This document shows, piece after piece, positions 1,938 through 41,668 of a stretch of DNA of 64,000 bases. The stretch lies in the IMG/VR virus record IMGVR_UViG_3300024268_000001; one strand, given 5' to 3'. Both the position numbers and the translations under genes were made by a program. The notes beneath the pieces are model-generated. The model was not told where the DNA came from. It saw only the letters and a list, made by a program, of their open reading frames with translations, and did not search any database. Position 1 is the first letter of the stretch; each line of letters opens with the position of its first letter. This DNA comes from a virus (Duplodnaviria; Heunggongvirae; Uroviricota; Caudoviricetes).

Positions 1938-2579
1938 TTAAATTTTAAATAGAAAGTCTTTCTTAGTGTATTTTGTGCTCTTATCGATGCACGAATTATT
2001 TATTAAAAACGTGTCACCGATTTCGCAAATGGACTTTTTCTTATCCTGTCCAAAATGCCAGATCTTTCCATTTACATTTAAATTCATTTTCCGTGGGTCA
2101 TAATAAGAAACAACGACGTCGGGAATAGATTCCGCAATTTTACGAAACCTATCAACTTCATCGTTGTACATCTCATTAATATCAGTGGTCCACCAATTCC
2201 ATCGTTTAATATTAACACTGGGGTCAATTCCAGTCGCTCCGCCAAAAACATGCTTATCAACCATAACTACTTGCCCATCTAACCTAATTGGCGAACAAAG
2301 TTTGCGCTGGAATGACCTCAGTGAATCTTTAACTTTTTCAAATTTCAAATCAAGCGGCATATCAGATTTCATATCACAGCCACCATAAACATACAGCACA
2401 TTTTTGTAGTGCTGTCCAAGATAAACCAGAAAACGCCTAGTCATCTCGTAATCTTCAGATATGCCGCTTATACACAATACATCAGCAGGGAGAAATTCTT
2501 CATCAAGTAGTTTCTTAAAATCAGCAAACATGTGCTTGCTGGGCTTAAGATTCAAATTATTGATGAAGAAACAATCCAT
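1938..2579 (-). CDS. hypothetical protein
   Basis: 213-aa ORF with consistent codon usage. No motif recognised. Confidence 0.5.
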   Translation of the reverse strand: MDCFFINNLNLKPSKHMFADFKKLLDEEFLPADVLCISGISEDYEMTRRFLVYLGQHYKNVLYVYGGCDMKSDMPLDLKFEKVKDSLRSFQRKLCSPIRLDGQVVMVDKHVFGGATGIDPSVNIKRWNWWTTDINEMYNDEVDRFRKIAESIPDVVVSYYDPRKMNLNVNGKIWHFGQDKKKSICEIGDTFLINNSCIDKSTKYTKKDFLFKI

Positions 2580-2757
2580 ACTTACTTAGTCCAGATAGTA
2601 GTCCACTTTCCACCGATAAACTGTTCAATCTTGACAACCGAACGAAGACGCGGATTCTTATAGGATTCCATGAGTTCTTCAGTATAGCAGTCAGAAGTAA
2701 ACGGTTCACCATACGGTGTACCAGTTTCGTCAACGTGATAACGAGTAATGCGCCACA

Positions 2758-3048
2758 TTAGGCCATAACCTCCTGTTGAAGTGTTCGATATAATGCAACC
2801 ATGTTACGGTCGAGTTCAGAACGCTTGTGCTTACCACGAAGAACCTTTTCAGCCATGAAACAAATAGTTGCTTCAGTCTGAGAAAGAGCTACGAGACTTG
2901 ACACAGCATAACGGGTATGTTCCGGTGAACGGATTTCCATACCTTCGAGCTGAACACGGTTACGGGTTTGTTCATTGCCGGTTGTGACCACATAGGCCTT
3001 ACCGGTCTTTCGATTCATTGCATAATTCATATTAATCTCCTCTATCAA
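2758..3048 (-). CDS. hypothetical protein
   Basis: 96-aa ORF. A further 58-aa ORF (about 2583-2759, minus strand) lies below the ORF-track length cutoff. Confidence 0.45.
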   Translation of the reverse strand: MIEEINMNYAMNRKTGKAYVVTTGNEQTRNRVQLEGMEIRSPEHTRYAVSSLVALSQTEATICFMAEKVLRGKHKRSELDRNMVALYRTLQQEVMA

Positions 3049-3121
3049 TTTTATCGATATTACAAATATAGTTAATCGCCTGTAAAAAATTGTTTAACAT
3101 AGGAAAAAGATTTGAGTTTTC

Positions 3122-3697
3122 TTACAGGGTTGATACGGGAAGCAATATGAGCTCATTTTTGAGAGAATACAACTTGGACATCATGTTTTTTACAAATGTA
3201 TGATGTTTATCCGAATTTTTGTCAAATATCGGATCTGTTGATTCTGTATAATTAACTATTCTACAAAGGTCACCGAGAGCCGCGTCAAATTTATTCAGAA
3301 CTTTGAAAAAGGTAAATAGCTTTTCAAAAGTAAACCAGCTCTTAAATTGAGAAATACTATCAAACCGCATGGTCTGATATTTATCGATGCCATCCTGGAA
3401 AAATTCTTGGTCAAAGTATTCATACATAGCCTTACGGCAAAGATTTTCCTCACCTTCAGTATAAAAACTTTGAATATAAGTATCGGCTACATAAACTATT
3501 CCGACTTTCTTATCATCAGTAACTGTAATTTTAATATCATGCACCCCGAAAGGTACGACAATACAGGTAGTATATACCTTAATAAGTGGAATCTGCCGTG
3601 TAGTATTATGTAGAGCAGTTTCCACTATTTCTGCTACTTCTTTATCAAATAGACCGTAGTCTAAATATTCAATTCTGTCTTTTTTAGTCATATACAC
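3122..3697 (-). CDS. hypothetical protein
   Basis: 191-aa ORF. No motif recognised. Confidence 0.5.
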   Translation of the reverse strand: MYMTKKDRIEYLDYGLFDKEVAEIVETALHNTTRQIPLIKVYTTCIVVPFGVHDIKITVTDDKKVGIVYVADTYIQSFYTEGEENLCRKAMYEYFDQEFFQDGIDKYQTMRFDSISQFKSWFTFEKLFTFFKVLNKFDAALGDLCRIVNYTESTDPIFDKNSDKHHTFVKNMMSKLYSLKNELILLPVSTL

Positions 3698-4412: not shown

Positions 4413-5600
4413 ATGAAGATTGATTTATCGACTATCAAAAATGACCTCCTCACTTCTGGTATGAAACTCGCTTCCGCTATCGAAAGCAAGGGTTACGAAG
4501 CATATCTGGTTGGCGGTTGCGTTCGTGACATGGTTCGTTGGACTATTGGCCAATGTGGTTTTCCGGATATTCACGATATTGACATCAGCACGAACATGCC
4601 TATCGATGAACTTCAGAAAAACTTCAAAACTGCCAGTAACAATGGCGAAGCTCACGGCACTATTCTGGTTTTCCAGGACGGTGAGCCTTTTGAAGTGACT
4701 CAGTTCCGTACCGATGGCGCTTATACCGATGGTCGTCACCCGGATTCAATCAAGTTCGCCAAGACTTTCAAGGAAGACTGCTTACGCCGCGATTTTACTA
4801 TCAACGCAATGGGTCTTACCGGTCAGGGTGAAGTCATTGACTATTACGGTGGTATCGATGATGTTACGAACGGCATTATCCGAGCTGTCGGTAAGGCAGA
4901 AGACCGTTTTGCTGAAGATTATCTCAGAATTTTCCGCGGTGTTCGTTTCATGGTCAACTTCGACTATTCTTTGGCTGATAGTACCTATGAAGCGATGAAG
5001 ACAACCGTTGATACTTATACTTATAAGATTAACTCTCTGTCTTATCCTCGTATTCGTGATGAAATCAGCAAGGTCAAGAATCCTTCTAAGAATCTCGCTT
5101 TGTTTTTCACGACACTGTATCGTACCGGTATTCTGAAATACTTGGTTACTTTCGAAGATGTTGATATTCCGGGTCTGATTGCACGTTTAGAATCTGTAAA
5201 TCATCTCACTGCGGATAACATCTTTGCGGTTATCGCTTTCGGCGAATACGACGTAATGTTACATCGTCTTGCTGCTACTCGAGAAGATTCTCGTTTGCTC
5301 AAGTGGTATTATTACATGCTCAAGAAGCTGAAAGAACCTAACGAAAATACAAGCTGGGACACTATTGTTAAATTCGTCGAAGGTGATTACAAAACTCTCC
5401 TCGAACTGTCCAAGATTGTTCCTGCCTGGTATAACAGAATTCCTATCGCTTTGAAGCTTAAAAAGGATAAACCCGATTTACATGCTATCTCTGAAAGAGT
5501 TCAGAACGAATTTCATGTTAAACCAGGTCCTAAGTTCGGTGCAGCTGTTAGCTACCTGCTCGAAGAGGCTTACGAAGCAAAAGCAAGGCATCTTCAATAA
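4413..5600 (+). CDS. cca: tRNA nucleotidyltransferase (CCA-adding enzyme) / poly(A) polymerase family
   Basis: 'LVGGCVRDMV' (GGxVRD) followed by 'DIDIST'. These are the class II nucleotidyltransferase head-domain signatures. 395 aa. Confidence 0.8.
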   Translation: MKIDLSTIKNDLLTSGMKLASAIESKGYEAYLVGGCVRDMVRWTIGQCGFPDIHDIDISTNMPIDELQKNFKTASNNGEAHGTILVFQDGEPFEVTQFRTDGAYTDGRHPDSIKFAKTFKEDCLRRDFTINAMGLTGQGEVIDYYGGIDDVTNGIIRAVGKAEDRFAEDYLRIFRGVRFMVNFDYSLADSTYEAMKTTVDTYTYKINSLSYPRIRDEISKVKNPSKNLALFFTTLYRTGILKYLVTFEDVDIPGLIARLESVNHLTADNIFAVIAFGEYDVMLHRLAATREDSRLLKWYYYMLKKLKEPNENTSWDTIVKFVEGDYKTLLELSKIVPAWYNRIPIALKLKKDKPDLHAISERVQNEFHVKPGPKFGAAVSYLLEEAYEAKARHLQ

Positions 5601-5633: not shown

Positions 5634-5882
5634 TTACTTAGCGGTAGATTCCCAACTGAAAGTAATTGTGTTATTGTCTTCGTCCATTCGAAGGAACTTA
5701 AATTCAAATTCAGAGAATTCAATATCCTTACGTTTCATCGTGGGCGATTTTACTTGAACTTCAAGAACTGGCAAACAGCATTCTCGGAATCGTGTGATTT
5801 GACGAGATGCTCCAGGAGTTCCTTCAGCTTCATCTACAATAGAACATGCTTTAGTTTTCTTATTAACTCTTACAATAACCAT
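5634..5882 (-). CDS. hypothetical small protein
   Basis: 82-aa ORF packed directly against the downstream kinase gene. Confidence 0.4.
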   Translation of the reverse strand: MVIVRVNKKTKACSIVDEAEGTPGASRQITRFRECCLPVLEVQVKSPTMKRKDIEFSEFEFKFLRMDEDNNTITFSWESTAK

Positions 5883-6323
5883 TTAGATTCTCCGTTTAAT
5901 TTTAATTTCGTTTTCCAGATCCTTAAACTGTTCTTTCATGTATGCAACCTTATCTGGCGGTACATTATGAACATTTTGGAATTCGTTATCCATACGATAA
6001 ATCGTGACCTCAATGCCACGAGCTGCCGCCTCTTTCAAATACGGTTTCATATCCTTACGGGTTACAAAAGTATTTGCGACGATAACATACTGAATTCCGT
6101 CGTCTAATGCCTTAAACGCTCTTTCATAACAATTTTTATGGGCATAATAAATTCGTTTTTGGTCGAAATTATAATTACCCTTATCATCATACCAAAAATC
6201 GTCGGCCTCGAAGTGCTTGACTGTATAGCCCTGCTTTTCGAGGTCGGCTTTAAGCGCTTTGGCATAAGTAGACTTTCCGGATCCAGGGATTCCCCTGATA
6301 ATTATTAATGTCTGCTTTGCCAT
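5883..6323 (-). CDS. polynucleotide kinase-like P-loop kinase (kinase domain only)
   Basis: 'IIIRGIPGSGKSTYAK' Walker A at the N-terminus. 146 aa, like the kinase module of T4 Pnk / bacterial Pnkp. Adjacent to an RNA ligase-like gene and a metallophosphoesterase gene. Confidence 0.6.
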   Translation of the reverse strand: MAKQTLIIIRGIPGSGKSTYAKALKADLEKQGYTVKHFEADDFWYDDKGNYNFDQKRIYYAHKNCYERAFKALDDGIQYVIVANTFVTRKDMKPYLKEAAARGIEVTIYRMDNEFQNVHNVPPDKVAYMKEQFKDLENEIKIKRRI

Positions 6324-6514
6324 TTTTCTGATTTCCTATTCTGTGAACCGATATATTATCGCAACCAGTAGAACATTCAGTAAATAGAATTTAAAGAATA
6401 TTCCTAGGATTGTACGACAACATAAGTCTTTGCTTGTGGTTCCTATTGAAGATATGACTAAAAAGAAACATTCCAATAGGAACAACGCCGTTCCATATTC
6501 AAATATAGTTAAAA

Positions 6515-7783
6515 TCATTCTTCAATAGTCCTCTGCACGTTAGAAGGTTCCAATTTTTTGTGAACTGCACGCTTAACAGATGCATAATTAGTGATATTAC
6601 GATTAATGCACTTGATAGCCTGCATAATAGCCCCAATATCGCTCTTATAGTGCTCCAGAGCGTATTCGTAGCGAGAACGCTGGTCTTCGCAAGCCTTCAT
6701 GGTTTCGCGAGCCTCAGCGAGAACTTCTTCAGTACGTTCCTTAACCTGAATGCGGACACTTTCGGCGTATGCACGTAAATCAGGGAATTCTTCAGGAATA
6801 TACAGAACTTCATCATCTACAGGCTTGTAACCGTTAGTCTTGTCGACATGGGCATGGAAGAAATCCTTTTCACAGTCATACGCTACCCAGATATTCCACT
6901 CGCTGAGGCATTCGAATATCTTTGCGAGCTGGCACCATTCATCGGATTTAACCTTGACCTTGAATCCATATTCCGGGAAAGTTACAACATAACCTTCCTG
7001 AGACGAAGGAAGCTTGGTCGCAGTATTTCGAGCGTCATTGAAATTATCGTATTCATAGATTTCTGCCATCTTGATTTGCCAAGTATTGGCATAAGCGCTA
7101 AGTCCAATAATATGCTCTTCAGCACCAGTTTCATTGTCGATAACTGCCAAAAGAACAAGACCTTCAAAATCATAACGAATCGGGTGAAAATCTTCATTTG
7201 AAACAATTTCAAACAAATAAGTTTTCTTCGGATTCAAAGTTGCCGCATGAGGACCGCCGATATGCTGGTCAAACCAACGCTGTCCCCAAATTGCCTGGTC
7301 AGAATCGAAAGATCCACCGGTCTTCAACTGCCAATGCTTAAGATAAGGATTCCAGAATACAATACCTAAAGAACCGTCCACCTTTTCCATAGTCAGGAAA
7401 CGAATAGACTTGAGAATCTTTCGAATATCAATTTTCTTCTGGTACTTCATTACCTTTTTTGCAAGGTCGGTAAGTTCGCCAGTTTCGTTGTTAATCAATT
7501 CGCCATAGTTGAAGAATTTATCAAAAGGACGTGCTACAATTTCGCCGGTTTCAGAATCGAAAACAATACCACGAGCATTGAGAGTAATTTCATCCCAATC
7601 CGATGAATATACTGTTTCACGAGTATACTTGAAACCAACCAGCTTACCATACCAGTGAGCTGAAATACGTCCCTTCTTTGCTGCCTTCAAATACTTACGG
7701 AGTCTGTGCTTGTTCCGCAGTTTCCGGAGTAGGTTCTTCAGCCAAGTCATCATTTTTCTTTTCCACCTTTTTCTTAGGCTCAT
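6515..7783 (-). CDS. RNA ligase-like nucleotidyltransferase (Rnl1-type KxDG motif)
   Basis: 'FLTMEKVDGSLGIVFW' covalent nucleotidyltransferase motif I. 422 aa. The N-terminal 30 codons overlap ORF 7695..7970, so the true start is uncertain. Confidence 0.55.
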   Translation of the reverse strand: MSLRKRWKRKMMTWLKNLLRKLRNKHRLRKYLKAAKKGRISAHWYGKLVGFKYTRETVYSSDWDEITLNARGIVFDSETGEIVARPFDKFFNYGELINNETGELTDLAKKVMKYQKKIDIRKILKSIRFLTMEKVDGSLGIVFWNPYLKHWQLKTGGSFDSDQAIWGQRWFDQHIGGPHAATLNPKKTYLFEIVSNEDFHPIRYDFEGLVLLAVIDNETGAEEHIIGLSAYANTWQIKMAEIYEYDNFNDARNTATKLPSSQEGYVVTFPEYGFKVKVKSDEWCQLAKIFECLSEWNIWVAYDCEKDFFHAHVDKTNGYKPVDDEVLYIPEEFPDLRAYAESVRIQVKERTEEVLAEARETMKACEDQRSRYEYALEHYKSDIGAIMQAIKCINRNITNYASVKRAVHKKLEPSNVQRTIEE

Positions 7784-7970: not shown

Positions 7971-8650
7971 ATGGCATCGGTTTTGACCAGTTCATCAATG
8001 CTTACTGGACGATACCATGCTTCCCAGCTAACATTGTTTTCGACCATTTTGCCGTTATGGTTATCGACAACGCTAGTCTTGTTGAATTCATGCGTATGAC
8101 CATGAACGAGATAGTCAATAGGCTTACCTTCCGCAAGATACTGGTTCAATGCGGTCGGGTCACCAGTTGTACCGTCATGTTCATTAATCGTTTCATCATA
8201 ATTATAATGCTGCAACAGATAGTTCTTACCATTATACGTAAGGTAAATGTTATCCTTTACCATAGTAATGTTCGGAAACATAGTTTCCTTGACCGGATAG
8301 AGCTTCTTGAACAGAGCATAGTCATGATTACCACGAATCATATACATGTGCTTGAAATTCAACTTGTTCGTGTAATAATCGCCAAACACTTCAAGCAACT
8401 TGCTACCGGGAGTACCGAGAGTAAAATCACCGAGGAAAATGACAATATCATTCGGAGAAACAACAGAATTCCATTGCTTCACAATATCTTCATTCATTTC
8501 CTCGACGGTTACGTACTTTCGTGTACGGTCAAAATGATCCTCGTAACTCGTGCAGAGTTTACGATGATTAACGTGCAAGTCACTGACAATAAAAATCTTT
8601 TCGTTGTGTAATTCTAGTTCCATAATGCAAATATAATAAAAATAAGGCAT
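7958..8650 (-). CDS. calcineurin-like metallophosphoesterase (candidate 2',3'-phosphatase of the RNA-repair set)
   Basis: Metallophosphoesterase motifs 'IVSDLHVNH', 'GDFTLG', 'GNHDY' and 'HGHTHE'. A -10-like 'tatattt' lies 6 nt before the ATG, so the mRNA is possibly leaderless. Confidence 0.7.
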   Translation of the reverse strand: MPYFYYICIMELELHNEKIFIVSDLHVNHRKLCTSYEDHFDRTRKYVTVEEMNEDIVKQWNSVVSPNDIVIFLGDFTLGTPGSKLLEVFGDYYTNKLNFKHMYMIRGNHDYALFKKLYPVKETMFPNITMVKDNIYLTYNGKNYLLQHYNYDETINEHDGTTGDPTALNQYLAEGKPIDYLVHGHTHEFNKTSVVDNHNGKMVENNVSWEAWYRPVSIDELVKTDAMWEK

Positions 8651-8671
8651 TTTGTAAATGCCTTATTTTTT
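8644..8671. terminator. intrinsic terminator
   Basis: The sequence aaggcattttgtaaatgcctt forms a hairpin followed by attttttg. Confidence 0.65.
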
Positions 8672-8832
8672 GTCACCAGATTTTGGAAACCGGTAACAGA
8701 GCAATACTAATAAAATTGTTTCAAGAATTACATAGATTATCGAAAACTGAAGCTGTAACAATGAACAGAAAATGAACATTGTAAAGAACACTGATAAAAA
8801 CGTGTTAATAATGAATAATAACAGTTTTTCCA

Positions 8833-9039
8833 TTATTCCTCAACTTCTTCTACCAAATCCTTGATTTTTACAATTTTAGGTTTTTGACCATTCAATTCAA
8901 ACGCATGTGTATTGATATAGTCAGTACACTGTGCGGAAGAATCGAAAGTATATGCTGAGCGCGGATTTCTGGTGGTTCCCCAACCATTCCAATATTCTGA
9001 ATCAATCTTAAGAACGTAATAATATTTAAGCATAGCCAT
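8833..9039 (-). CDS. hypothetical small protein
   Basis: 68-aa ORF. Its start is 13 nt downstream of the NadM-like gene stop. Confidence 0.4.
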   Translation of the reverse strand: MAMLKYYYVLKIDSEYWNGWGTTRNPRSAYTFDSSAQCTDYINTHAFELNGQKPKIVKIKDLVEEVEE

Positions 9040-9051
9040 CTTTATATATGA

Positions 9052-10170
9052 TTACTTCTGCAGATAATCTTGAATAATCTTTTCATGATGGAAACCCATC
9101 TTCGGAAGATTACCGACACTGAACCATGCTGCATCCTTCGCATCGTCGCCGGCCTTAGCCATCTTCTTTTCCTTACCAGTAACCCTTACAGATACTGCTG
9201 TATCGATAATACGCAAGCGTGGGTCAAACATATGGCTATAGGTCTTAATCTGTTCGAACTTTTCAACTGGGAGGTTCAGAGACGTTTCTTCGCGGAATTC
9301 ACGCTGTGCTGCATGTTCCAAAGAAGCATCAGCCTTTTCAGGAAGTCCGGTTTCCTTATTGATATAATCAACCGGATTAAAGAATCCACCAGGAGTACAG
9401 AAGTAATTCATATACGGTGGTTTCCTACGGCGAATCAACAGAACTTCATCACCGGAAATACCGACAATATCAACCGTGTTTGCAAACTTTCCCCAACCCT
9501 GCTTCTTATAGTTTTCAATCCACTGCTTTTCAAGTTCAGTATAGTTGGTCGGATTCTGGTCATAAAGACTGTTTGTCTTAATCGGATTATCACGGTCATC
9601 CGTAAGTTCGCCTTCTTTTCGGATATATTCAAACACTGGCTTGCTAATCAGTGTCTTAACATCCTTATAGTGGCATTCCGGATTACGGTAGAAAATTTTA
9701 CGAGCTTCGCTACTGGAAATACCTTCAGTCTTAATACCCATGAGATAAGTACAATCATAACCGTACTTCGATTTCAATGCACCATCATTATCATCACGAG
9801 GAATAACCAAGAACTTATAGTTATTCAAAAGCTGATTACCGAACTTCCACTTTCCGTTAACCAAAGAATACCATTCGTCTTCGCCGATAACAATAGTAAT
9901 ATCCTTATCCTTGGTACCGAACTTATGGGAAATGAATTCATAAGTCCTGTTATTCTGAACGAGAATCGTAGGATTCAACTTTCGTGCAGTCATTGCGACC
10001 TTAACCATCGCGACACGTTCATCTACCGGAGTCTTATAATTCTTTTCGTCCGTATTGGAAACAAGAACATAAAGTTCATCGCCCTTACGAACCTTTTTGC
10101 TCACTGCCTTAATAATAGCTTCATGAGCGTGAGTAATCGGATCAAATGCACCACCAATCAAATACTTCAT
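9052..10170 (-). CDS. nadM: bifunctional NMN/NaMN adenylyltransferase - Nudix hydrolase (NadM-like)
   Basis: N-terminus 'GGAFDPITHAH' is the cytidylyltransferase (H/T)xGH motif. C-terminus carries the Nudix box 'LEHAAQREFREETSL'. Strong RBS 'aggaga' 6 nt upstream. Confidence 0.75.
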   Translation of the reverse strand: MKYLIGGAFDPITHAHEAIIKAVSKKVRKGDELYVLVSNTDEKNYKTPVDERVAMVKVAMTARKLNPTILVQNNRTYEFISHKFGTKDKDITIVIGEDEWYSLVNGKWKFGNQLLNNYKFLVIPRDDNDGALKSKYGYDCTYLMGIKTEGISSSEARKIFYRNPECHYKDVKTLISKPVFEYIRKEGELTDDRDNPIKTNSLYDQNPTNYTELEKQWIENYKKQGWGKFANTVDIVGISGDEVLLIRRRKPPYMNYFCTPGGFFNPVDYINKETGLPEKADASLEHAAQREFREETSLNLPVEKFEQIKTYSHMFDPRLRIIDTAVSVRVTGKEKKMAKAGDDAKDAAWFSVGNLPKMGFHHEKIIQDYLQK

Positions 10171-33191: not shown

Positions 33192-34076
33192 TTATTTTAA
33201 CTCACCGATAGGTTCTTCTTTTCTAATCATGCCCTTAGGGAATCTTGAATCTCTATAATATTTTGTCATATCCCTACTTGCACGAATATTAGTGAATTCT
33301 TCCGGTTTCAATGTTGGCCATTCTCTGGTCCATTTTCCTTTATAATAACTAGGTATACCAGCTTCGCTTGCAGATTTTCCATCCTTTATAGCATTTAGGA
33401 TTTTATTAAGCTGTGTGTTATTTTTAGAAATACAGAAATAGCAAGTTCCCAAAGGACCGCCTTCAACTTTTACAATAACGTTTTTAAGACAGAAATCAAC
33501 AACGTACTTTTTATCCATCATTGCAACGCCAGTTTCTGTATTTTGAACCGCATATCTTTCAATATTGCCAAGTTCTGGATATTTAAGCGACATTTCATCT
33601 GCTAATTGTTTCCAAACACCAGTATGAGCAGTTTCGGCAGTATTATTCAGAATCTGGCGATAACGTGTAATAGCACGATAGCTTAAAGCACGTCTAGCGG
33701 CATCCCATTCAGCTTCCGTAAAACCTACAACGCAGTCACGGTAATAGTGAAGCATTTCATGAACAAATGTATTTCTAAAAGCGGCAAAAGTACCACAAGC
33801 ATTGATATTAAGTTTAATTTCGACACCTTCAACTTTACTTTCGTAAACATTCGGTCTCGGTCTAAAATAGCCATGAACACTTGTACCCTTGAACCAGCCT
33901 AATGAAATCGGTTGAAGCTTACCTCCGAAGTAAGTATCGTTAAATTCATTAAAATACTTCTTTAACGCTGCGTCATTCTTTTCGAATTCTTCGCCGGTAT
34001 CTGGGTCTGTAAGCTTAAAGCTTTCGTCTAATAAAAATTCTTCATTTTCCATATTATATTTATGACAATTCTTCAA
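33192..34076 (-). CDS. putative zinc metallopeptidase (HExxH, SprT/zincin-like)
   Basis: Single HExxH motif in 'NTFVHEMLHYYRD'. No other zincin features checked. Confidence 0.4.
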   Translation of the reverse strand: MKNCHKYNMENEEFLLDESFKLTDPDTGEEFEKNDAALKKYFNEFNDTYFGGKLQPISLGWFKGTSVHGYFRPRPNVYESKVEGVEIKLNINACGTFAAFRNTFVHEMLHYYRDCVVGFTEAEWDAARRALSYRAITRYRQILNNTAETAHTGVWKQLADEMSLKYPELGNIERYAVQNTETGVAMMDKKYVVDFCLKNVIVKVEGGPLGTCYFCISKNNTQLNKILNAIKDGKSASEAGIPSYYKGKWTREWPTLKPEEFTNIRASRDMTKYYRDSRFPKGMIRKEEPIGELK

Positions 34077-34875
34077 CGAAGGTAATGAACTTCATCGGAA
34101 TGTTTTGGTTAGTAAAGCATGCACATGAAGACAATTCGTCATCGTCGTCGAATTCCGGATCTTTATGAACAGGCCAGTTTTCAGGAAGGTCGATTCTGTA
34201 CATATACATCTGCGGCATTGATTCATCATGGTCTTCTTCCCATTCAATGACTATCTGGCCGAACATAGACTGTGCGAGGTTGTACATTTCGTCATTAAGC
34301 TTATGCTGGGCTGTTCTTACGTTCGTGTCTATATCTATATCACCTCTGAGGATAAGGACCTTTAAAGCCATCTTACCGTTAATCATATAGATACGAGGAG
34401 GATAGTTGACCTTCATAGACTTCCTCTTACAACGAAGACCACCGGTTTTGACCAAATCATCCGGCGATGCACTGCTTATATGATAGAACTTCGTAAAATC
34501 GAGTTTTCCAAGGAACTTATTGAATGTAGCCATATATTCCTTGTTTTTGAAAAGCTCAAGTTCGTAATAAGGCTTTACATTATCGACATCTTCTCTTCCT
34601 TGGCGGAAAATAAGTTCATCTGTCGTATATTGTCCTTTAGAATTGACTAGAGAACAATCATCCCAACCGTTAGCGGCGAAAAACTTCGAAATTTCGTCGA
34701 CTTCAAGTCCTTTATCCGTTAAGGTTGAAATTGCGAACTTAACTTCCATGCCGTTCAAAATGAGACGCTTTGCACAGTCTTGTAATGGAATATGAAATCT
34801 TACTCTGAACTTCTTTACTAATTCAGGCAAATCTACAAATTTAAGCGATTCTGTCAAAATATTTAAAAGTCTCAT
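34060..34875 (-). CDS. hypothetical protein, paralog pair member A
   Basis: Its C-terminal region '...YRIDLPENWPVHKDPEFDDDDELSSCACFT' parallels the 34876..35598 product. Confidence 0.5.
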   Translation of the reverse strand: MRLLNILTESLKFVDLPELVKKFRVRFHIPLQDCAKRLILNGMEVKFAISTLTDKGLEVDEISKFFAANGWDDCSLVNSKGQYTTDELIFRQGREDVDNVKPYYELELFKNKEYMATFNKFLGKLDFTKFYHISSASPDDLVKTGGLRCKRKSMKVNYPPRIYMINGKMALKVLILRGDIDIDTNVRTAQHKLNDEMYNLAQSMFGQIVIEWEEDHDESMPQMYMYRIDLPENWPVHKDPEFDDDDELSSCACFTNQNIPMKFITFVEELS

Positions 34876-35598
34876 TTATTCTCCAATCATTTTCTTTAAC
34901 TTTTGAATTGTATCTGCATATTTATCATTAGAACTTACGAGTTCAATCCAAGAAGGGTCAATCTTATGCGTTGTAAAACAGGCACCAGTCGAAACTTCTT
35001 CTTCTAACTCTGTATATTCCGGGTCTTTATAAACTTTTACTGTATCTGGCAATCTTACAAGGTAAATATTCTTGCCATACGGTCTCATTGCTTCGATGAC
35101 ATAGTAAACATTGTCCCAAAATTCAAACTTATTCTTTGTATGTGCTGCAATTTCTTCGAGACTCCAAAGATATACACGAGCTTCGTTATAAATCGGACCA
35201 ACCTTTGTATCGTTAGGATGTTCGTCGTCCCAGCTGTTATACTTTGCCGGACGAAATCCAATCTTAGAAAATACTTCAATATTTCTATGTGCGGCACGAA
35301 GATATAAACCGTGGAATTTCTTGGCGAACTTGGAATCTGTCTTATATTCTGTTTTAGAATTTCTCAAAACCAATGACCAATCGCTATAGGCTCCGATTCT
35401 CCAGCCATAAGCGTCCAATAGTTCATCGAATTCTTTAACAGTGTATTTAATCTTGTCAAAAATGGAAGGATCCATTTCAATAACACCGTCGTTTTCGTCA
35501 AGGACATAATGTGCCACATCGATTCCTAGTTTTCCCTTTAGGAATCCAACCAACTGCTGTGGTGTTGTTGTATGTGTAAGAAATTCAACTAGACGCAT
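34876..35598 (-). CDS. hypothetical protein, paralog pair member B
   Basis: '...YLVRLPDTVKVYKDPEYTELEEEVSTGACFT' is homologous to the C-terminus of the neighbouring ORF. Confidence 0.5.
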   Translation of the reverse strand: MRLVEFLTHTTTPQQLVGFLKGKLGIDVAHYVLDENDGVIEMDPSIFDKIKYTVKEFDELLDAYGWRIGAYSDWSLVLRNSKTEYKTDSKFAKKFHGLYLRAAHRNIEVFSKIGFRPAKYNSWDDEHPNDTKVGPIYNEARVYLWSLEEIAAHTKNKFEFWDNVYYVIEAMRPYGKNIYLVRLPDTVKVYKDPEYTELEEEVSTGACFTTHKIDPSWIELVSSNDKYADTIQKLKKMIGE

Positions 35599-35900
35599 TC
35601 TTTACCTATAATCATCTTGACATTTTTCTCAATTTCATAAGTCAAAGTTTCTGGGACAATCGGAAGAACCTTTATTGTACTGTCGTCAATAACCATGGTA
35701 ACATGACTGTTTCCGAAAATATAGTAGAAGTTAATTTCAGTTCCGCATTCTTCAATCGAAAGTGAAAGTGCTTTCGTACTTTTATTTTCATTTGTTTTTG
35801 ACATTATAACGTTTCTATCTCGAATAGCCTTGTCCATATCGACAAAAACTTTCTTGACATTATCGTAATTGAGTGCTCGCCAGTTTATATTGTCGTTCAT
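35589..35900 (-). CDS. hypothetical small protein
   Basis: 103-aa ORF. Confidence 0.4.
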   Translation of the reverse strand: MNDNINWRALNYDNVKKVFVDMDKAIRDRNVIMSKTNENKSTKALSLSIEECGTEINFYYIFGNSHVTMVIDDSTIKVLPIVPETLTYEIEKNVKMIIGKECV

Positions 35901-35970: not shown

Positions 35971-37122
35971 TTAGGCTACATTGTCTCGTTTTACGAAAAT
36001 GGTAAATCCAAGGAAACCAATAAAATAGAGAAGTGCCAAAACAAGATATAAAGTATTGTCAGTAAACAAGTTTCCAAGAATAGGTCCCGCAATTCCAGCA
36101 AATCCCCAGGCACTAAGCGTCATAGAGTGAACTGTAGAAAGACAACTATCTCCGAATCTCTTAGCAAGTAAACTTGGCAAACAACTGAATCCTCCGCCGT
36201 AGTTCCATTCAATCATCAAAATACCAGCTACAAGCAAAATCGGATTTTGTGTATAACACAAAAACGCACCAAGAATACCCAAACTTGCAACCCAATGATA
36301 AGCAGCCTTTCTACCAATCGAATCACTAGCCGTACTCATTCCAAATCGACCACCGACATTTGCAACAGCTGTAGCAGCCATAAGTGAAGCGATAGCAGTA
36401 TATCCAGCATTTAAAAACAGGCTCTTTTCCTGAGAAATAAGTGCAAGGCCGCATGTAATGTTGATAAAGAACATAAACCAAATCGAAATATATTCTTTAG
36501 TCAAAAATTTGGCCTTTATAAGAGTCTTATACGGAATAGCAGTATATTTTGTAGAAATATATGCAGGATTAGGTTTATATAGCCATGAAGAGAAACTCAT
36601 TACAACTAAGAAAATCAATCCCATGAGTAAGAATACAACTGGCAACGTAAAGGTTGCAAGCAAATACTCAATCATAGGAGCCGCAACGAACTTTCCCAAT
36701 CCGAAACCGGTAATAGCCAATCCGGAAGCGAGTCCTTTATGATTACTGAAGTTTGCAAGCAGCTGTTTAATTGGTGCCGTATAGCCTATGCCGGTACCGC
36801 AACCCATAAATGAACAGCCGATATAATAAAGTGGTAAAAATCCAGTATAGGTTGCAAACGAAAGTAGCAATAATCCTATTGCAAACAGAATTGTTGAAAC
36901 TATCGCCATTCGTTTCGGGAACATTTCAACGAATCTTCCGAAAACCGCAGCACCCATGCCAAGGAAGAAAATAATCAGAGTAAATCCAATATCAGCTGAG
37001 AATTTCGAAATATCAAAAGTCTCCATGATATTCTTGGCATATTGTGAATAGTTATAAACTGAACCTAAACTGACAGGTAACAAAATACCCGGAATTAAAA
37101 TATTGAGAAATCTATTTGTCAT
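35971..37122 (-). CDS. MFS-type transporter (about 12 TM)
   Basis: 383 aa. Hydrophobic helices are spaced regularly throughout (e.g. LNILIPGILLPVSLGSVY, GFTLIIFFLGMGAAVFG, LVLALLYFIGFLGFTIFV). Confidence 0.7.
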   Translation of the reverse strand: MTNRFLNILIPGILLPVSLGSVYNYSQYAKNIMETFDISKFSADIGFTLIIFFLGMGAAVFGRFVEMFPKRMAIVSTILFAIGLLLLSFATYTGFLPLYYIGCSFMGCGTGIGYTAPIKQLLANFSNHKGLASGLAITGFGLGKFVAAPMIEYLLATFTLPVVFLLMGLIFLVVMSFSSWLYKPNPAYISTKYTAIPYKTLIKAKFLTKEYISIWFMFFINITCGLALISQEKSLFLNAGYTAIASLMAATAVANVGGRFGMSTASDSIGRKAAYHWVASLGILGAFLCYTQNPILLVAGILMIEWNYGGGFSCLPSLLAKRFGDSCLSTVHSMTLSAWGFAGIAGPILGNLFTDNTLYLVLALLYFIGFLGFTIFVKRDNVA

Positions 37123-37123
37123 A

Positions 37124-37498
37124 TTAATTGAATGCCGTAGTAATAGGGTCTTTGAATACTTCCTTGAATTCGTGTTTGAGTTTCATATTGAAATGCCAAT
37201 ATGGGTCGAATAATGGATCCGTATTTTCAATCAATCCGATAGTATCAGATTCTTCCTTTGGAATGTCCCATGAAATATCAAATATTCCATTATCAAGAAC
37301 ATTTAAAGTAAACTTTATATTCGGACAAGTACCATCCCGGTCAAATATATGACCGAAAATACCAGCAATATCTTCAGTAATGAAATTGCTAGGTGGTTTG
37401 ATAAGTAATTTGTATACGCCTGTTCTGAATTTTATATTATTATCATCTATCTTGTCACGCCAAGTAGATGAATATGTTGAATCATATGTCATTTTCAC
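37124..37498 (-). CDS. hypothetical protein
   Basis: 124-aa ORF. Coupled to the methyltransferase C-fragment. Confidence 0.45.
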   Translation of the reverse strand: MKMTYDSTYSSTWRDKIDDNNIKFRTGVYKLLIKPPSNFITEDIAGIFGHIFDRDGTCPNIKFTLNVLDNGIFDISWDIPKEESDTIGLIENTDPLFDPYWHFNMKLKHEFKEVFKDPITTAFN

Positions 37499-38274
37499 CT
37501 CGTCTTATAACCAAAGGGCAACATTTCGTCCTTTATAAATTCTTTATATTTATACAGTCCGATTTCTTCAATTACCCAATTTTCATCGACGGGTTTAGTA
37601 AAGTCAAAAACAGGAATACAGTCATATTTCGTATGCTGATTAAACTTATAGAGGTAGTTTAAGAACATAGCAATATCAGTATTGCAATAATCTATAAAAT
37701 TTTTGCACTCATCTACCGTAGCAAATCCGATATACTGATTTTTGAGTTTTAAGGCACTTTCGGGGACGTTTTGAACTGGAGTATATCTTTCCTTGGACAA
37801 AAGCGTACACCAGTCCCAGGCTCGTCTATGGCCTCTTATATCGCTTAATTGGATATACCAGGTATTCTTCTTTCCCTGTTCGGTTCCAATAGTCTTTTTT
37901 CCAACCAGATATGCATCTACAATCTTCGTAATTTCCTTATATTTCTCAGGATCCGAAAATCTGTTAAATCGTAAATCATAGAGGTCAAGTTTCTTTTGGT
38001 CAAACTTGAAAATACCTACATCCGAGAAAAATTCAGCATCTTCAAACTTTGCATCACCGACAACGGTTTCAATACGGCTAAAAGACTCAAATCTTTCATT
38101 GAGAATTTCGATATGCTTATTGTTGATATTTTCCTTAATACGATGATTGTCTACAAAATCAGTAGGTACAAGCCAAACGGCGGAATCTGCGAATTTCTCA
38201 CATTCCGACATTACTTTTAAATAAAGCTTTTCGCCTTTACCGATATATGGTGGATTTCCGATTATTGTAAACAT
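37495..38274 (-). CDS. N6-adenine (or N4-C) DNA methyltransferase, C-terminal fragment (motif IV + target-recognition region)
   Basis: Begins 'MFTIIGNPPYIGKG', which is catalytic motif IV (NPPY). The rest is a TRD-like region. Confidence 0.7.
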   Translation of the reverse strand: MFTIIGNPPYIGKGEKLYLKVMSECEKFADSAVWLVPTDFVDNHRIKENINNKHIEILNERFESFSRIETVVGDAKFEDAEFFSDVGIFKFDQKKLDLYDLRFNRFSDPEKYKEITKIVDAYLVGKKTIGTEQGKKNTWYIQLSDIRGHRRAWDWCTLLSKERYTPVQNVPESALKLKNQYIGFATVDECKNFIDYCNTDIAMFLNYLYKFNQHTKYDCIPVFDFTKPVDENWVIEEIGLYKYKEFIKDEMLPFGYKTR

Positions 38275-38663
38275 AGAAGGTCACGTTCAGCTTGTAGATT
38301 AGAAATAACTTTTAAAAAATCTCCGTCGTTATTTATTGTAATGGTCCAATCCTTACCGCTAACTACGTCGCCGTGCAAAAATTTGACATCACAAGAACTC
38401 GGTTGAATACTGAAAACTTTATCATCATATTTTTCTTGACTTTCATAGATGGCTTTAAATTTCTTTGAACAAAAACCAACACCAGAATATAAATTCGGGG
38501 CTTTAAATAAACCATAACAACATGGCAATCTTCCAAGGTTACTACTATAGTCCTGGCTTGAGAAATAACAGACTCTATCTATTAAATCGGAAGTAACAGA
38601 ATGTTTAATTGTCTTATCATTTCGAACAATCGAGAATTTAATCTTTTTCTTAAACCAAAGCAA
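38262..38663 (-). CDS. small protein, member of a 3-gene paralog insert
   Basis: '...LHGDVVSGKDWTITINNDGDFLKVISNLQAERDLL'. Compare the 38650 and 38975 products. Confidence 0.5.
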   Translation of the reverse strand: MLWFKKKIKFSIVRNDKTIKHSVTSDLIDRVCYFSSQDYSSNLGRLPCCYGLFKAPNLYSGVGFCSKKFKAIYESQEKYDDKVFSIQPSSCDVKFLHGDVVSGKDWTITINNDGDFLKVISNLQAERDLLCLQ

Positions 38664-39045
38664 TTTCAGTCTCCAGGTTATAAATCAATTTTTCAAAACT
38701 AAATTGAGAATCTAATGTAATCGTCCAGTCATGGCATTTAACAGTATCGCCAAGCTTGAAACTCGCGCCACAATCATCAAGATTCTTATAGCTAGAGCCA
38801 AACATTACATCCTGATATTCTTCCGGGTACAATACCATGTATTTTGTAAATTCTTGATTATCATTAGTAAAACTTAATCGGGTATCGTCTTTTCGAGAAG
38901 AATTACAAAGGTAATATTTTCGTGTTTTACCGTTATGAACAATCTTTACTCTTAAAGTATTAGAACTATGTCTTCTACTGCAATACATATTCCATTTCCA
39001 AGTTGTTGAAGAGACGTTTAAAATCACCAGTAGTATTAAGTTCAA
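38650..39045 (-). CDS. small protein, member of a 3-gene paralog insert
   Basis: '...KLGDTVKCHDWTITLDSQFSFEKLIYNLETEIALV'. Confidence 0.5.
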   Translation of the reverse strand: MNLILLVILNVSSTTWKWNMYCSRRHSSNTLRVKIVHNGKTRKYYLCNSSRKDDTRLSFTNDNQEFTKYMVLYPEEYQDVMFGSSYKNLDDCGASFKLGDTVKCHDWTITLDSQFSFEKLIYNLETEIALV

Positions 39046-39433
39046 TAGTCCAGGTAGGAAATACTACCTTATCGCCACGTTTGAGAATATATGTTGCATC
39101 ACATGGATATACATGAGAACCATAATGTACACGTGTTTCAACTTCATCATGTTCAGACATATATCTTACACCAAATCCATAAATTTCTTCAGGTGTTGGA
39201 TTATGCAGCTGACCCATCGAAAGAATATCATAATATTGCGACATACTATCAAAACGTTGTGTCAAATCCGGCTTATATTTATCGCTGCTATAAATTGTAG
39301 TCTTAAACCAAGGCGCATATTCGAGACGACTTGAACGACCATTTCGAAAAACAGTAAATAAAACCGGTTTTTCATGTTTCACCGATTCTTTGGTTTCAGG
39401 CTCATCATAGATATGTTTATAATCTGTCAACAT
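38975..39433 (-). CDS. small protein, member of a 3-gene paralog insert
   Basis: '...LKRGDKVVFPTWTIELNTTGDFKRLFNNLEMEYVLQ'. Confidence 0.5.
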   Translation of the reverse strand: MLTDYKHIYDEPETKESVKHEKPVLFTVFRNGRSSRLEYAPWFKTTIYSSDKYKPDLTQRFDSMSQYYDILSMGQLHNPTPEEIYGFGVRYMSEHDEVETRVHYGSHVYPCDATYILKRGDKVVFPTWTIELNTTGDFKRLFNNLEMEYVLQ

Positions 39434-39879
39434 ACAAATTCCGCAAATCCGCTATTTTCAATTTTTGTTTCATCGACTTCTTCTTTAGGTTTCCAGTTTT
39501 CAAAATCCCACTTAAAGAAATCGGCACATACAATATTTTTGTTTACAATTTTACTGTATTTAGGTCCAACAATTTCAAGAATTCTTTGGACACACAAATC
39601 TCTGTTATCCTGCATTAATTCAACACCGTAAAGTGTCTTTACTGCATCTTCAACCGAAATTCCAGAAGCAAGACGTTTTTCAAGCATACGAACAAGGATG
39701 TTTCCGCTTCCCGCTGTAGGATCCAAAAATGTGGCTTTAGGGTCTTTCCATTTTTCTTCAGGAATTTTAGTAATCATTTGGTCAATAACTGCAAATGGTG
39801 TAAATACTTCACCGTTCTTGGTGATACGTTCTTTAGAACGTTGAATTCCATCATTAGTAGTAAATAACTCTTTAGACAT
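39427..39879 (-). CDS. DNA methyltransferase, N-terminal fragment (SAM-binding motifs X/I-III)
   Basis: 'GEVFTPFAVIDQMI' (motif X-like), 'FLDPTAGSGNIL' (motif I, FxGxG) and 'IVCADFF' (motif III). Ends 25 aa later, and the NPPY motif is missing. Confidence 0.7.
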   Translation of the reverse strand: MSKELFTTNDGIQRSKERITKNGEVFTPFAVIDQMITKIPEEKWKDPKATFLDPTAGSGNILVRMLEKRLASGISVEDAVKTLYGVELMQDNRDLCVQRILEIVGPKYSKIVNKNIVCADFFKWDFENWKPKEEVDETKIENSGFAEFVC

Positions 39880-39916
39880 AATTTAAATATAACAATTTTT
39901 CTTAATTTTGTAAGCG

Positions 39917-40699
39917 CTATCGTGATGCATAGCTTTCAGACCAGTCTTCTTTTTCGATAGCATGCATTTTTGCATATGAATCTTTACTGTCACCTTCAAA
40001 TTTAGCCAAATCACTTAGTAAATCACAGTTATGCATAATTGCTTTTGCGGTACATTCCTTAAATCTTCTAACATCATCACTGTTTTTAATTGAAAGTATG
40101 GCATTCAAGTTATAGAAAAAACAATCCATATCTTCTTTATCTGAATTTACTCTAATAGTCTGACATGTATGATAAAAACCTTTTGTTTTTCCAATAGAAT
40201 ATATACAATTTTTTATAATGTTTGCTCTGGCAGAATTTTTATTTACAAACATTTTTCCAAGTTCATAAGTATCAAAACTATATTCTAGTTCATAAAATCT
40301 ATATTCATATCTATATGTTTTAGGGTCATTTTTCAAATGATATTTTCCAACTCTTTTATTATATCTTGCACGTATATTTAAAATAACATCATTATCCGAA
40401 TGTTTTATATTGAAAATGATGGTAGAATATGGTATAATATCTGTAACTTCTTCAGGTTCAATTATAGAACCATTATATGTTACTGGTGCTTTATTAAATG
40501 CCGAAACATCATAACCGCATACTTCAATACCATATTTTTCAAACAGTTTAATAATCTGAAAAATTTCACCTTTTCTAGCTGTTATTTCTTTCTTTGTCTG
40601 TTTGATTTTATCAATAACTTTATTATACTGCTTGATGGGTTTATCAAGAAGTTTGTTAATATCGTTTCCAATTTTAATATCTAAATCTTTCATAATCAA
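39917..40699 (-). CDS. family-B protein (paralog of the 41096 and 42054 products)
   Basis: Shares the block 'D.FF.L...L.......RF...T.KA...N...L' with the 41096 and 42054 products. Confidence 0.5.
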   Translation of the reverse strand: MIMKDLDIKIGNDINKLLDKPIKQYNKVIDKIKQTKKEITARKGEIFQIIKLFEKYGIEVCGYDVSAFNKAPVTYNGSIIEPEEVTDIIPYSTIIFNIKHSDNDVILNIRARYNKRVGKYHLKNDPKTYRYEYRFYELEYSFDTYELGKMFVNKNSARANIIKNCIYSIGKTKGFYHTCQTIRVNSDKEDMDCFFYNLNAILSIKNSDDVRRFKECTAKAIMHNCDLLSDLAKFEGDSKDSYAKMHAIEKEDWSESYASR

Positions 40700-41095: not shown

Positions 41096-41668
41096 TTATT
41101 CGAGTTTGTTAATTGATTTTAACATCAATAAGTTTTGTTTTGCTGCCTTACATGTAAAATCTCTGTATCTGATAAAATCATCTTCAGTAGTTATTTCGGT
41201 TAATGCATCAATTAGCATAAAGAATGTATCTACCTTTTCTGGTTCGGTATCGGCAAAAATCTGAATGAACGGTGTTTCATTAGTAGCCCTAGCGTAATGA
41301 TATTTTATTGTATCTTTCTTAGCTACATATCCGCCTTTATGACGAATAGACAAATATAGACGACCATTTAATTCTTCTTTTTTAGAAGCAGAAACATTAT
41401 AATTTAAAACTACAGAATGTGTATTTTCTTTACGAATATGAATTGCTGCAAACTTATTATCATTAACTGCATCAATAGATGGTTCTATTACTTCATGGTA
41501 TATAATTTTATATCCTCTTGAAGTAATCATATTTTCAAGAATTTCTGCATCTTCTTTATTTTTCTCATATATAGAACGAAACCGGTTAATAGCCCGGTCG
41601 CGTAAATTATTATAATATTCTTTTATACGCTCAATATTGTCGTCTACTATATTTGAAAATTTACACAT
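41096..41668 (-). CDS. family-B protein
   Basis: 'DTFFMLIDALTEITTEDDFIRYRDFTCKAAKQNLLMLKSINKLE'. Confidence 0.5.
   Translation of the reverse strand: MCKFSNIVDDNIERIKEYYNNLRDRAINRFRSIYEKNKEDAEILENMITSRGYKIIYHEVIEPSIDAVNDNKFAAIHIRKENTHSVVLNYNVSASKKEELNGRLYLSIRHKGGYVAKKDTIKYHYARATNETPFIQIFADTEPEKVDTFFMLIDALTEITTEDDFIRYRDFTCKAAKQNLLMLKSINKLE

Follow-up and report, generated by a model that had tools for sequence, protein, structure and literature searches.

A methyltransferase divided between motifs III and IV in a large tailed phage: probably two separately encoded subunits with small paralogous genes between them

Background

Can a methyltransferase whose conserved motifs are shared out between two genes, with three small genes in between, still be one enzyme, and was it ever a single gene that those three interrupted? 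The question is raised by a stretch of 64,000 nucleotides (hereafter the window, always meaning the whole stretch) of the IMG/VR record IMGVR_UViG_3300024268_000001, a virus of the Caudoviricetes. An initial annotation of this DNA had noted one open reading frame (ORF) with S-adenosylmethionine (SAM)-binding motifs and, about 1.15 kb downstream, another that opens exactly at the catalytic motif IV. It had proposed either an insertion that fragmented the methyltransferase or a mobile three-gene cassette that targets conserved genes. Here we compare the locus with its relatives. We find it likely that the two genes encode a co-transcribed two-subunit gamma-type N6-adenine methyltransferase (N6_Mtase/Eco57I-like), the subunits of which are normally separate genes in this phage family. 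The window derives from a very large phage, because the contigs of its IMG/VR relatives reach 415-424 kb. The IMG/VR contig 3300028833_000474 represents the same phage (97-99% identical), and no near-identical DNA match for the window was found in the phage collection.

Results

Translation of the window gives five consecutive ORFs on the minus strand. The first, hereafter the N half (39427..39879, 150 residues), is the SAM-binding module with motifs X and I-III. It is followed by three small paralogs, namely A (38975..39433, 152 residues), B (38650..38988, 112 residues from the ATG used by its homologues, with a TTG at 39045 as an alternative upstream start given by the ORF caller) and C (38262..38663, 133 residues, TTG start). 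The last is the C half (37495..38274, 259 residues), which runs from motif IV onward and includes a C-terminal domain. The four successive junctions overlap by 7, 14, 14 and 13 nt, the last of these being the final 13 nt of paralog C and the start of the C half. The 1,152 nt from the N-half stop to the C-half start are filled by the three paralogs, which match one another in BLASTP (A and B, 5e-7; A and C, 1e-7; B and C, 2e-8). The initial annotation was correct on all these points: the SAM-motif ORF, the ORF opening at MFTIIGNPPY, the gap with its three mutually paralogous ORFs and the overlap at every junction are borne out by the translation and the family matches. The motif set is complete only across both genes; the order X-I-II-III-IV-target-recognition domain is kept at the gene level and not in one chain.

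The N half contains motif X (GEVFTP), motif I (FLDPTAGSGN, residues 51-60, read from the translation at 39700..39729 on the minus strand), motif II (YGVELMQ) and motif III (VCADFF, with IVCADFF at residues 115-122), and a 28-residue tail follows motif III. Positions 23-96 of the 311-position Pfam profile N6_Mtase match it with an E value of 1.5e-6 and a score of 28.2 bits, above the cut-off of 20.4. The PADLOC models MTase_II and MTase_I, for type II and type I methylases, match it as well, as do the short PHROG families 21201 and 4376 and positions 283-383 of the PHROG 11371 profile. It has 218 homologues, on contigs of up to 359 kb; among the 120 matches listed, lengths range from 116 to 154 residues and are mostly 145-154. 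Residues G57 and G59 of motif I are invariant in all N-module alignments, and W124, D125, F126, N128 and W129 are invariant among the aligned N modules of gut phages. These last residues belong to the segment WDFENW (residues 124-129, 39493..39510 on the minus strand), with which the stand-alone tail starts. In an alignment of 15 stand-alone and five fused N modules, the stand-alone tail (F/A)(F/L)xWD(F/Y)ENW occupies the same columns as the linker ...FE(D/N)M of the fused chains, which is followed there by KFDxIIGNPPY. After W129, the N half has an extra 21-residue tail ending in a hydrophobic-F motif. The WDFENW segment is recognisable in the N modules of cyanophages; of the tail, the Klebsiella phage module clearly shows only its hydrophobic-F C-terminus. 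We take this conserved tail as a putative adaptation to a long-standing split state.

The C half opens with MFTIIGNPPY, that is, with motif IV, whose GNPPY occupies residues 6-10 (38245..38259, minus strand). It runs through the remaining Rossmann-like fold and closes, at ...EMxPFGYK, with a family-specific C-terminal domain that has no Pfam model. PHROG 11371 (383 positions) matches it at profile positions 7-246. Apart from the fused protein P0023 described below, 22 close homologues (72-98% identical) were found on contigs of up to 322 kb; 16 are full-length, with 261-266 residues, and six are truncated or anomalous (157-288 residues). GNPPY is invariant in the clade members and in the family profile alignment.

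Searching with a C-module profile gave 1,348 representatives (50% clustering, E <= 1e-3). Among the top 150, 58 are stand-alone proteins of 240-320 residues with motif IV within the first 30 residues, 64 carry an N-terminal extension of 40-160 residues, and 15 are large multidomain proteins. Motif I was recognised by a simple motif pattern in only five of the 64 extended proteins; a hidden Markov model (HMM) of the N module detected an N-like module upstream of motif IV in eight of the 64 and in several larger ones. A separate N module still follows the extended C protein in L027, L079, L082, L084, PKO111 and S-SKS1 (numbers with L denote loci of relatives, those with P homologous proteins). 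Most single-chain relatives with an extension of 70-150 residues (P0144-P0201) show a Rossmann-like strand-helix pattern (for example KKILVI...VIYITD) and no glycine-rich motif I, and this extension may be a degenerate cofactor half.

Uninterrupted homologues, comparison with which the initial annotation had suggested as a way to define the ancestral junction, do exist. P0023 (382 residues) is a contiguous protein in N-to-C order, 31-34% identical to both halves and ending ...EEMKPFGYK; its junction reads ...NDFFVFANEIN on the N side and MKFDVIIGNPPY on the C side. P0239, P0253 and P0268 are similar. In alignment with the fused chains, W129 of the N half is the last residue ahead of the break and M1 of the C half the first beyond it, because the stand-alone tail aligns with the fused-chain linker ahead of KFDxIIGNPPY. 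The break is thus the linker between motifs III and IV of one methyltransferase, where the initial annotation had put it.

As a natural fusion, P0023 was modelled in place of a chimera of the two halves. An alignment for such a chimera was tried and dropped, because MAFFT spread the N modules out over the C region. From a 55-row alignment, AlphaFold2 gave a P0023 model with a mean predicted local distance difference test score (pLDDT) of 87 and a predicted template modelling score of 0.85. Its strands lie where motifs I-IV predict them, and confidence drops to its minimum (56) over residues 101-110, at the junction. The model of this fused homologue displays the seven-stranded Rossmann-like methyltransferase fold. 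In a Foldseek search of the PDB with the model, CamA ranks first, followed by type I HsdM, PacII M and M.BseCI, which like CamA are gamma-class DNA adenine methyltransferases; generic Rossmann methylases (Erm, KsgA, TFB1M) are also among the top matches. The P0023 sequence itself gave only spurious RecA-repeat matches when compared with solved structures.

Stand-alone N modules of 145-165 residues and C modules that open at motif IV are spread over gut megaphages, cyanophages, Lak phages and phages of Klebsiella; in many distant phages without the paralogs, the family is usually encoded by separate genes. The closer relatives illustrate how variable the layout is. Three of them (L004, L019 and L026) repeat the layout of the window, with the N half, three paralogs and the C half in this order. 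In L009, the order is N half, one paralog, ten unrelated small ORFs, one paralog and C half, so that the gap measures 4.2 kb; overall, the gap varies among relatives from 1.15 to 4.2 kb, with differing content. L011 has three paralogs and then the C half, with no N half within 10 kb. Two paralogs precede the C half in L022-L025, where the fetched sequence, reaching at most 10 kb upstream, showed no N half, and one paralog precedes it in L020 and L021, with no N half detected within 10 kb. Conversely, L012 has a lone N half and no C half within 8 kb. On the contig 3300028832_000001 of IMG/VR (415,750 bp; hereafter the 415-kb contig), a C half of the window type (87% identity) and the sole N module detected are about 61 kb apart; this N module has a locus of its own, where its neighbours are two other C modules. 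The two loci, L020 and L070, lie at about 264 kb and 326 kb, respectively. In all, three C modules were seen on this contig (332 and 242 residues near the N module, 264 residues about 61 kb away) against one N module, for which the search patterns were narrow, so that others may have been missed.

Outside this clade, the C module directly precedes the N module in P-SSM2, S-SKS1, PKO111, L027, L071, L082 and L084, and the opposite order, N then C with a 67-nt spacer, is seen in L074. Three unrelated genes lie between a leading C module and the N module in L014, and the halves in Lak-A2 are divergently transcribed, 175 bp apart. Because the halves are divergent in Lak-A2 and about 61 kb apart on the 415-kb contig, a single polypeptide is impossible in both. 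In Prochlorococcus phage P-SSM2, PSSM2_036 (MKFTLAIGNPPY..., 193 residues) is overlapped by PSSM2_037, a 132-residue N module according to tblastn. In Klebsiella phage PKO111, gp114 (an NPPF module with a long N-terminal extension) is followed by gp115, the N module; Synechococcus phage S-SKS1 has a C-then-N pair like that of PKO111. In gp114 (L003:1497-2984), the extension fused to the C module amounts to about 230 residues, and by eye its start (YYVYMILINKNVVYIGKGTGDRAWSHF) resembles a GIY-YIG nuclease motif. At two loci, L077:8134-10432 and L081:8175-10417, a pair of C modules in tandem precedes a single N module; the members of the L077 pair are identical over about 45 C-terminal residues and differ in the central, presumably target-recognition, region. 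Finally, orf67 of Aeromonas phage ZPAH1 (386 residues) is a single chain in permuted order, MNNRMFDYVIMNPPY ... FLDPACGDGN ... HKDFLKV. The proteins underlying PHROG 11371 have the same arrangement, with the NPPY half ahead of the SAM half (C half at 7-246, N half at 283-383).

The three paralogs share the core C..F..GD.V...WTI.L....F..L..NLE.E. Homologues of paralog B (P0295-P0300) have 109-113 residues and start with MYCS. The whole family comprises 11 clusters in 5.8 billion proteins, all in the clade of the window. An iterated HMM found its members only directly beside methyltransferase halves at the loci fetched, in one to three copies, and detected no further copy elsewhere in the 64-kb window or at the other loci. 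The paralogs stay by the C half even where there is no nearby N half (L011, L020-L025). Since descent alone could explain this constant position, it gives a functional link with the C half modest weight. No match for A-C was found in Pfam, PHROG, NCBIfam or PADLOC, so that they could not be placed in a known defence, anti-defence or phage family. A derivation from a piece of the methyltransferase was likewise rejected, with an hhalign probability of 0.1% against both halves. The AlphaFold2 model of paralog C is poor (pLDDT 58), and Foldseek returned nothing below E = 1 for the paralogs. The 124-residue ORF directly downstream of the C half (37124-37498) was considered as a fourth paralog and rejected, being unrelated to A-C by sequence comparison.

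Purifying selection acts on all five genes. In the comparison of the window with L004, the ratio of nonsynonymous to synonymous substitution rates (dN/dS, Nei-Gojobori) is 0.22 for the N half, 0.16, 0.13 and 0.075 for paralogs A, B and C, and 0.19 for the C half; the same method gives 0.19 for the neighbouring MFS transporter gene. For the C half in eight clade members, the proportion of nonsynonymous differences is far below that of synonymous ones, and dN/dS is 0.03-0.19 in all lineages. Even in the lineages without an adjacent N half, the value for the C half is 0.03-0.15 (0.08 between L020 and L022).

The two halves share one reading frame, 1,605 nt apart, with 27 stops of all three kinds between them; these in-frame stops rule out read-through or recoding across the gap. 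Rfam detected no intron family over positions 36500-40500, where E <= 1 gave only a chance small-RNA match outside the gap, and paralogs A-C contain no homing-endonuclease, intein or other Pfam domain. Neither repeats nor an integrase domain were found at the three-ORF block. There are 25 promoter-like sites, where chance alone would give 22, and no minus-strand terminator was found in the cluster. Because the genes lie on one strand, with overlapping stop and start codons and no terminator detected, the cluster is most likely transcribed together and translationally coupled.

The surroundings of the cluster are variable. Directly downstream lies a complete MFS transporter gene of 383 residues (35971-37122, minus strand; Pfam MFS_1, 4e-26), which is 87% identical in L004. 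This relative, 84% identical to the window, has three DUF7487 (PF24308) genes near its methyltransferase cluster (2480-3406, 5856-6992 and 8258-9304) that are absent from the window. One of them is at the site of the window's 260-residue ORF 39917-40699, of which only residues 1-63 and 180-260 remain in L004, and another replaces the 124-residue ORF. It is the DUF7487 genes that appear to be truly mobile in this neighbourhood. L009 is without the MFS gene and the 124-residue gene of the window, and its C half is directly followed by homologues of 35589-35900 and 34060-35598. The neighbourhood is a hot spot of gene gain and loss, because the DUF7487 genes are extra in L004, and in L009 the MFS and 124-residue genes are missing and the ten gap ORFs are extra.

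Several other genes of the window and its relatives were recorded. Upstream of the cluster, the ORFs 39917-40699 and 41096-41668 (minus strand) have a homologous C-terminus of about 55 residues (BLASTP, 8e-7) and form a local paralog pair without a family match. PHROG matches in the window include a tRNA nucleotidyltransferase (4413-5600, plus strand), an RNA ligase (6515-7783, minus strand) and a cytidylyltransferase-NUDIX fusion (9052-10170, minus strand); ARAGORN found no tRNA gene in the 64 kb. In the 359-kb relative, a TnpB-like gene (L012:15165-16358; OrfB_IS605 / Cas12f1-like_TNB) is located about 7 kb from the N half.

Discussion

The above observations are consistent with an enzyme that is divided in the genome and completed as a protein complex. 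The 150-residue subunit would supply strands beta1-beta3 with motifs X and I-III for cofactor binding, and the 259-residue subunit would supply beta4 onward, the NPPY catalytic loop and a C-terminal DNA-recognition domain. After translation, the two proteins may assemble so that the central beta-sheet is completed across the beta1/beta4 interface, and the tail of the small subunit (WDFENW ... hydrophobic-F end) probably aids docking. Such a complex could methylate adenines in the phage DNA, which may allow escape from host restriction. As to its history, fission at the III/IV linker is probably ancient and was probably followed by free reshuffling of both genes, with re-fusion in permuted order in the Aeromonas phages. 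In the clade of the window, small genes probably accumulated between N and C genes that were already separate; the three paralogs probably arose there by local tandem duplication within the hot spot of gene gain and loss.

Several points weigh against this reading. That the two proteins bind each other, that DNA is the substrate and that the tail has the role given above are inferred from the genes, as is methylation itself, and the fold was modelled for a fused homologue 31-34% identical to the halves, not for the window's own proteins. DNA is not the sole candidate substrate, as NPPY also occurs in methyltransferases acting on rRNA, tRNA and protein glutamine. One source labels P0023 as RsmD, and with its model the rRNA methylases Erm and KsgA score nearly as well in Foldseek as DNA methylases do. 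The ancestral state of the family is uncertain, because most N-extended C-module proteins have no recognisable motif I. Finally, with a partner absent within 8-10 kb in L011, L020-L025 and L012, the pair in the window need not be an exclusive one.

The last point leads to an alternative that we regard as possible though rather unlikely, namely that a small SAM subunit pairs with several interchangeable catalytic subunits, that the N and C halves of the window are not an exclusive pair, and that the paralogs are possible accessories of the C subunit. The two tandem C modules with one N module in L077 and L081, and the three C modules with one detected N module on the 415-kb contig, are what such sharing would produce. 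Strong purifying selection on C halves without a nearby N half, and the paralogs that always abut the C half, point the same way. However, the patterns used for N modules were narrow and further ones may have been missed, synteny among close relatives is expected from descent alone, and the paralogs resemble no known DNA-binding or regulatory domain. A wider version of this idea is offered as a speculation that we consider doubtful: a widespread modular family of adenine methyltransferases in large phages, its catalytic fold shared by two subunits, with one SAM subunit serving interchangeable C subunits to give combinatorial specificities, with fused forms, forms split in either order, unlinked ones and ones re-fused in permuted order as living intermediates of the fission and re-fusion that led to permuted methyltransferase classes, and with the paralogs as accessories of the C subunit.

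It is unlikely that the two halves are decaying remnants, or that RNA or protein, rather than DNA, is what the enzyme methylates. Each half alone is without part of the catalytic fold, and the RsmD label and the rRNA methylases (Erm, KsgA and TFB1M) among the top structural matches would suit an RNA substrate. But decay is excluded by dN/dS values of 0.03-0.22 and by motifs I and IV that are invariant at about 52% (N) and 72% (C) identity. Against a substrate other than DNA, the sequence families are those of DNA adenine methylases (N6_Mtase, Eco57I, PADLOC type I and type II methyltransferases), and the best structural match is the DNA methylase CamA.

Even less likely is the proposal of the initial annotation that an intact N-to-C gene was recently broken by the three-ORF block, possibly as a mobile cassette targeting conserved genes. 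It is true that in fused homologues N and C abut at exactly this point, that the window retains the canonical order with both halves in the same frame, and that L074, with N and C separated by a 67-nt spacer, could represent the state before insertion. However, L074 is already split, so that fission would precede any insertion, and the tail of stand-alone N modules in gut megaphages and cyanophages (in Klebsiella phage only as the hydrophobic-F end) points to a split of long standing. In distant phages that do not have these ORFs, N and C are usually separate genes. As for a cassette, the search for copies elsewhere, which had also been suggested, found none outside this locus in the window and the other loci fetched. 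The paralogs, with their 11 clusters, are restricted to one phage clade and one position, vary from one to three copies, remain beside the C half in relatives that have no N half nearby, and are accompanied by no repeats, integrase or endonuclease domains. We thus reject a mobile gene cassette. The initial annotation had further held that separate, non-adjacent subunit genes together with a lack of uninterrupted homologues would speak against a fragmented gene; the former are found, and uninterrupted homologues are found as well.

It is practically inconceivable that one continuous chain is made from both halves, be it through excision of a self-splicing intron or an intein, through translational bypass or through recoding of stop codons: the halves are in the same frame, and Lak phages, which are relatives, use a recoded stop codon, but the 27 in-frame stops of all three kinds, the three genes under purifying selection that occupy the gap in other frames, the lack of group I/II introns, of other Rfam families and of intein or homing-endonuclease domains (as the initial annotation had rightly argued against an intron), and a gap that varies in size and content, with halves that elsewhere are divergent or about 61 kb apart, all stand against it.

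If we return to the probable two-subunit adenine methyltransferase, its closest known counterparts are the gamma-class methyltransferases (N6_Mtase PF02384 / Eco57I PF07669; HsdM, CamA, M.BseCI). Like these, it has motifs X, I-III and IV (NPPY) and a C-terminal recognition domain, and the fused homologue P0023 models as their fold; unlike them, its catalytic domain is divided between two genes at the III/IV linker. M.AquI and M.EcoHK31I are natural DNA methyltransferases of two polypeptides, M.HhaI and M.SssI have been split by engineering, and complementation restores activity (PMC5944983, PMC3404938). Enzymes of the M.AquI type are C5-cytosine methylases split between motif VIII and the target-recognition domain, i.e. 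between structural domains (PMC5944983). The only natural split methyltransferases known on record are such C5 enzymes cut between domains (PMC5944983, PMC3404938). As in M.AquI and M.EcoHK31I, two separate ORFs together carry the full motif set here. In contrast to them, the present case is a putative two-subunit NPPY amino-methylase in which the Rossmann-like fold itself is divided, with the cofactor-binding part up to motif III in one chain and the catalytic part from motif IV in the other. A full-text literature search returned split C5 enzymes and permuted classes and no description of this III/IV split.

Circularly permuted classes of methyltransferases (alpha, beta, gamma and zeta) were reportedly modelled by Jeltsch in 1999 and Bujnicki in 2002 (see PMC5944983). 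The break described here is the boundary of the SAM-binding and catalytic subdomains that the permuted classes rearrange, and the Aeromonas-phage homologues (ZPAH1 orf67, PHROG 11371) are single chains in the order IV...-X-I-III. The genes of the window differ in that they encode two chains in the canonical N...C order. With fused, split and re-fused forms side by side, the family appears to fit fission and re-fusion rather than duplication and truncation. A passage in an article on jumbo phages notes 'circularly permuted M.EcoKI-like DAMs' (PMC7824862). Elsewhere the same article refers to split RNA polymerase beta/beta' and to a minimal Pol III alpha that is split into genes lying far apart (PMC7824862); the portions of its text covered by a term search contain no mention of a split methyltransferase. 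These jumbo-phage enzymes resemble our case in having the catalytic core in separately encoded polypeptides, sometimes at distant loci, and differ in belonging to other enzyme classes.

Conclusions

If the pair forms an active enzyme, it would be the first natural DNA amino-methyltransferase of which we found a record that is cut inside its Rossmann-like catalytic domain rather than between domains. Large phages often carry members of the family, whether they come from the gut, the ocean or enterobacteria. If the interpretation given here is true, its members would provide a natural series of intermediates for the long-standing circular-permutation model of methyltransferase classes, and also a ready-made scaffold for split enzymes, which until now had to be engineered manually for targeted methylation. 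As regards annotation, many 'hypothetical' phage proteins of 150 and 260 residues would be explained as halves of such an enzyme, and caution is advisable before either half is called a pseudogene.

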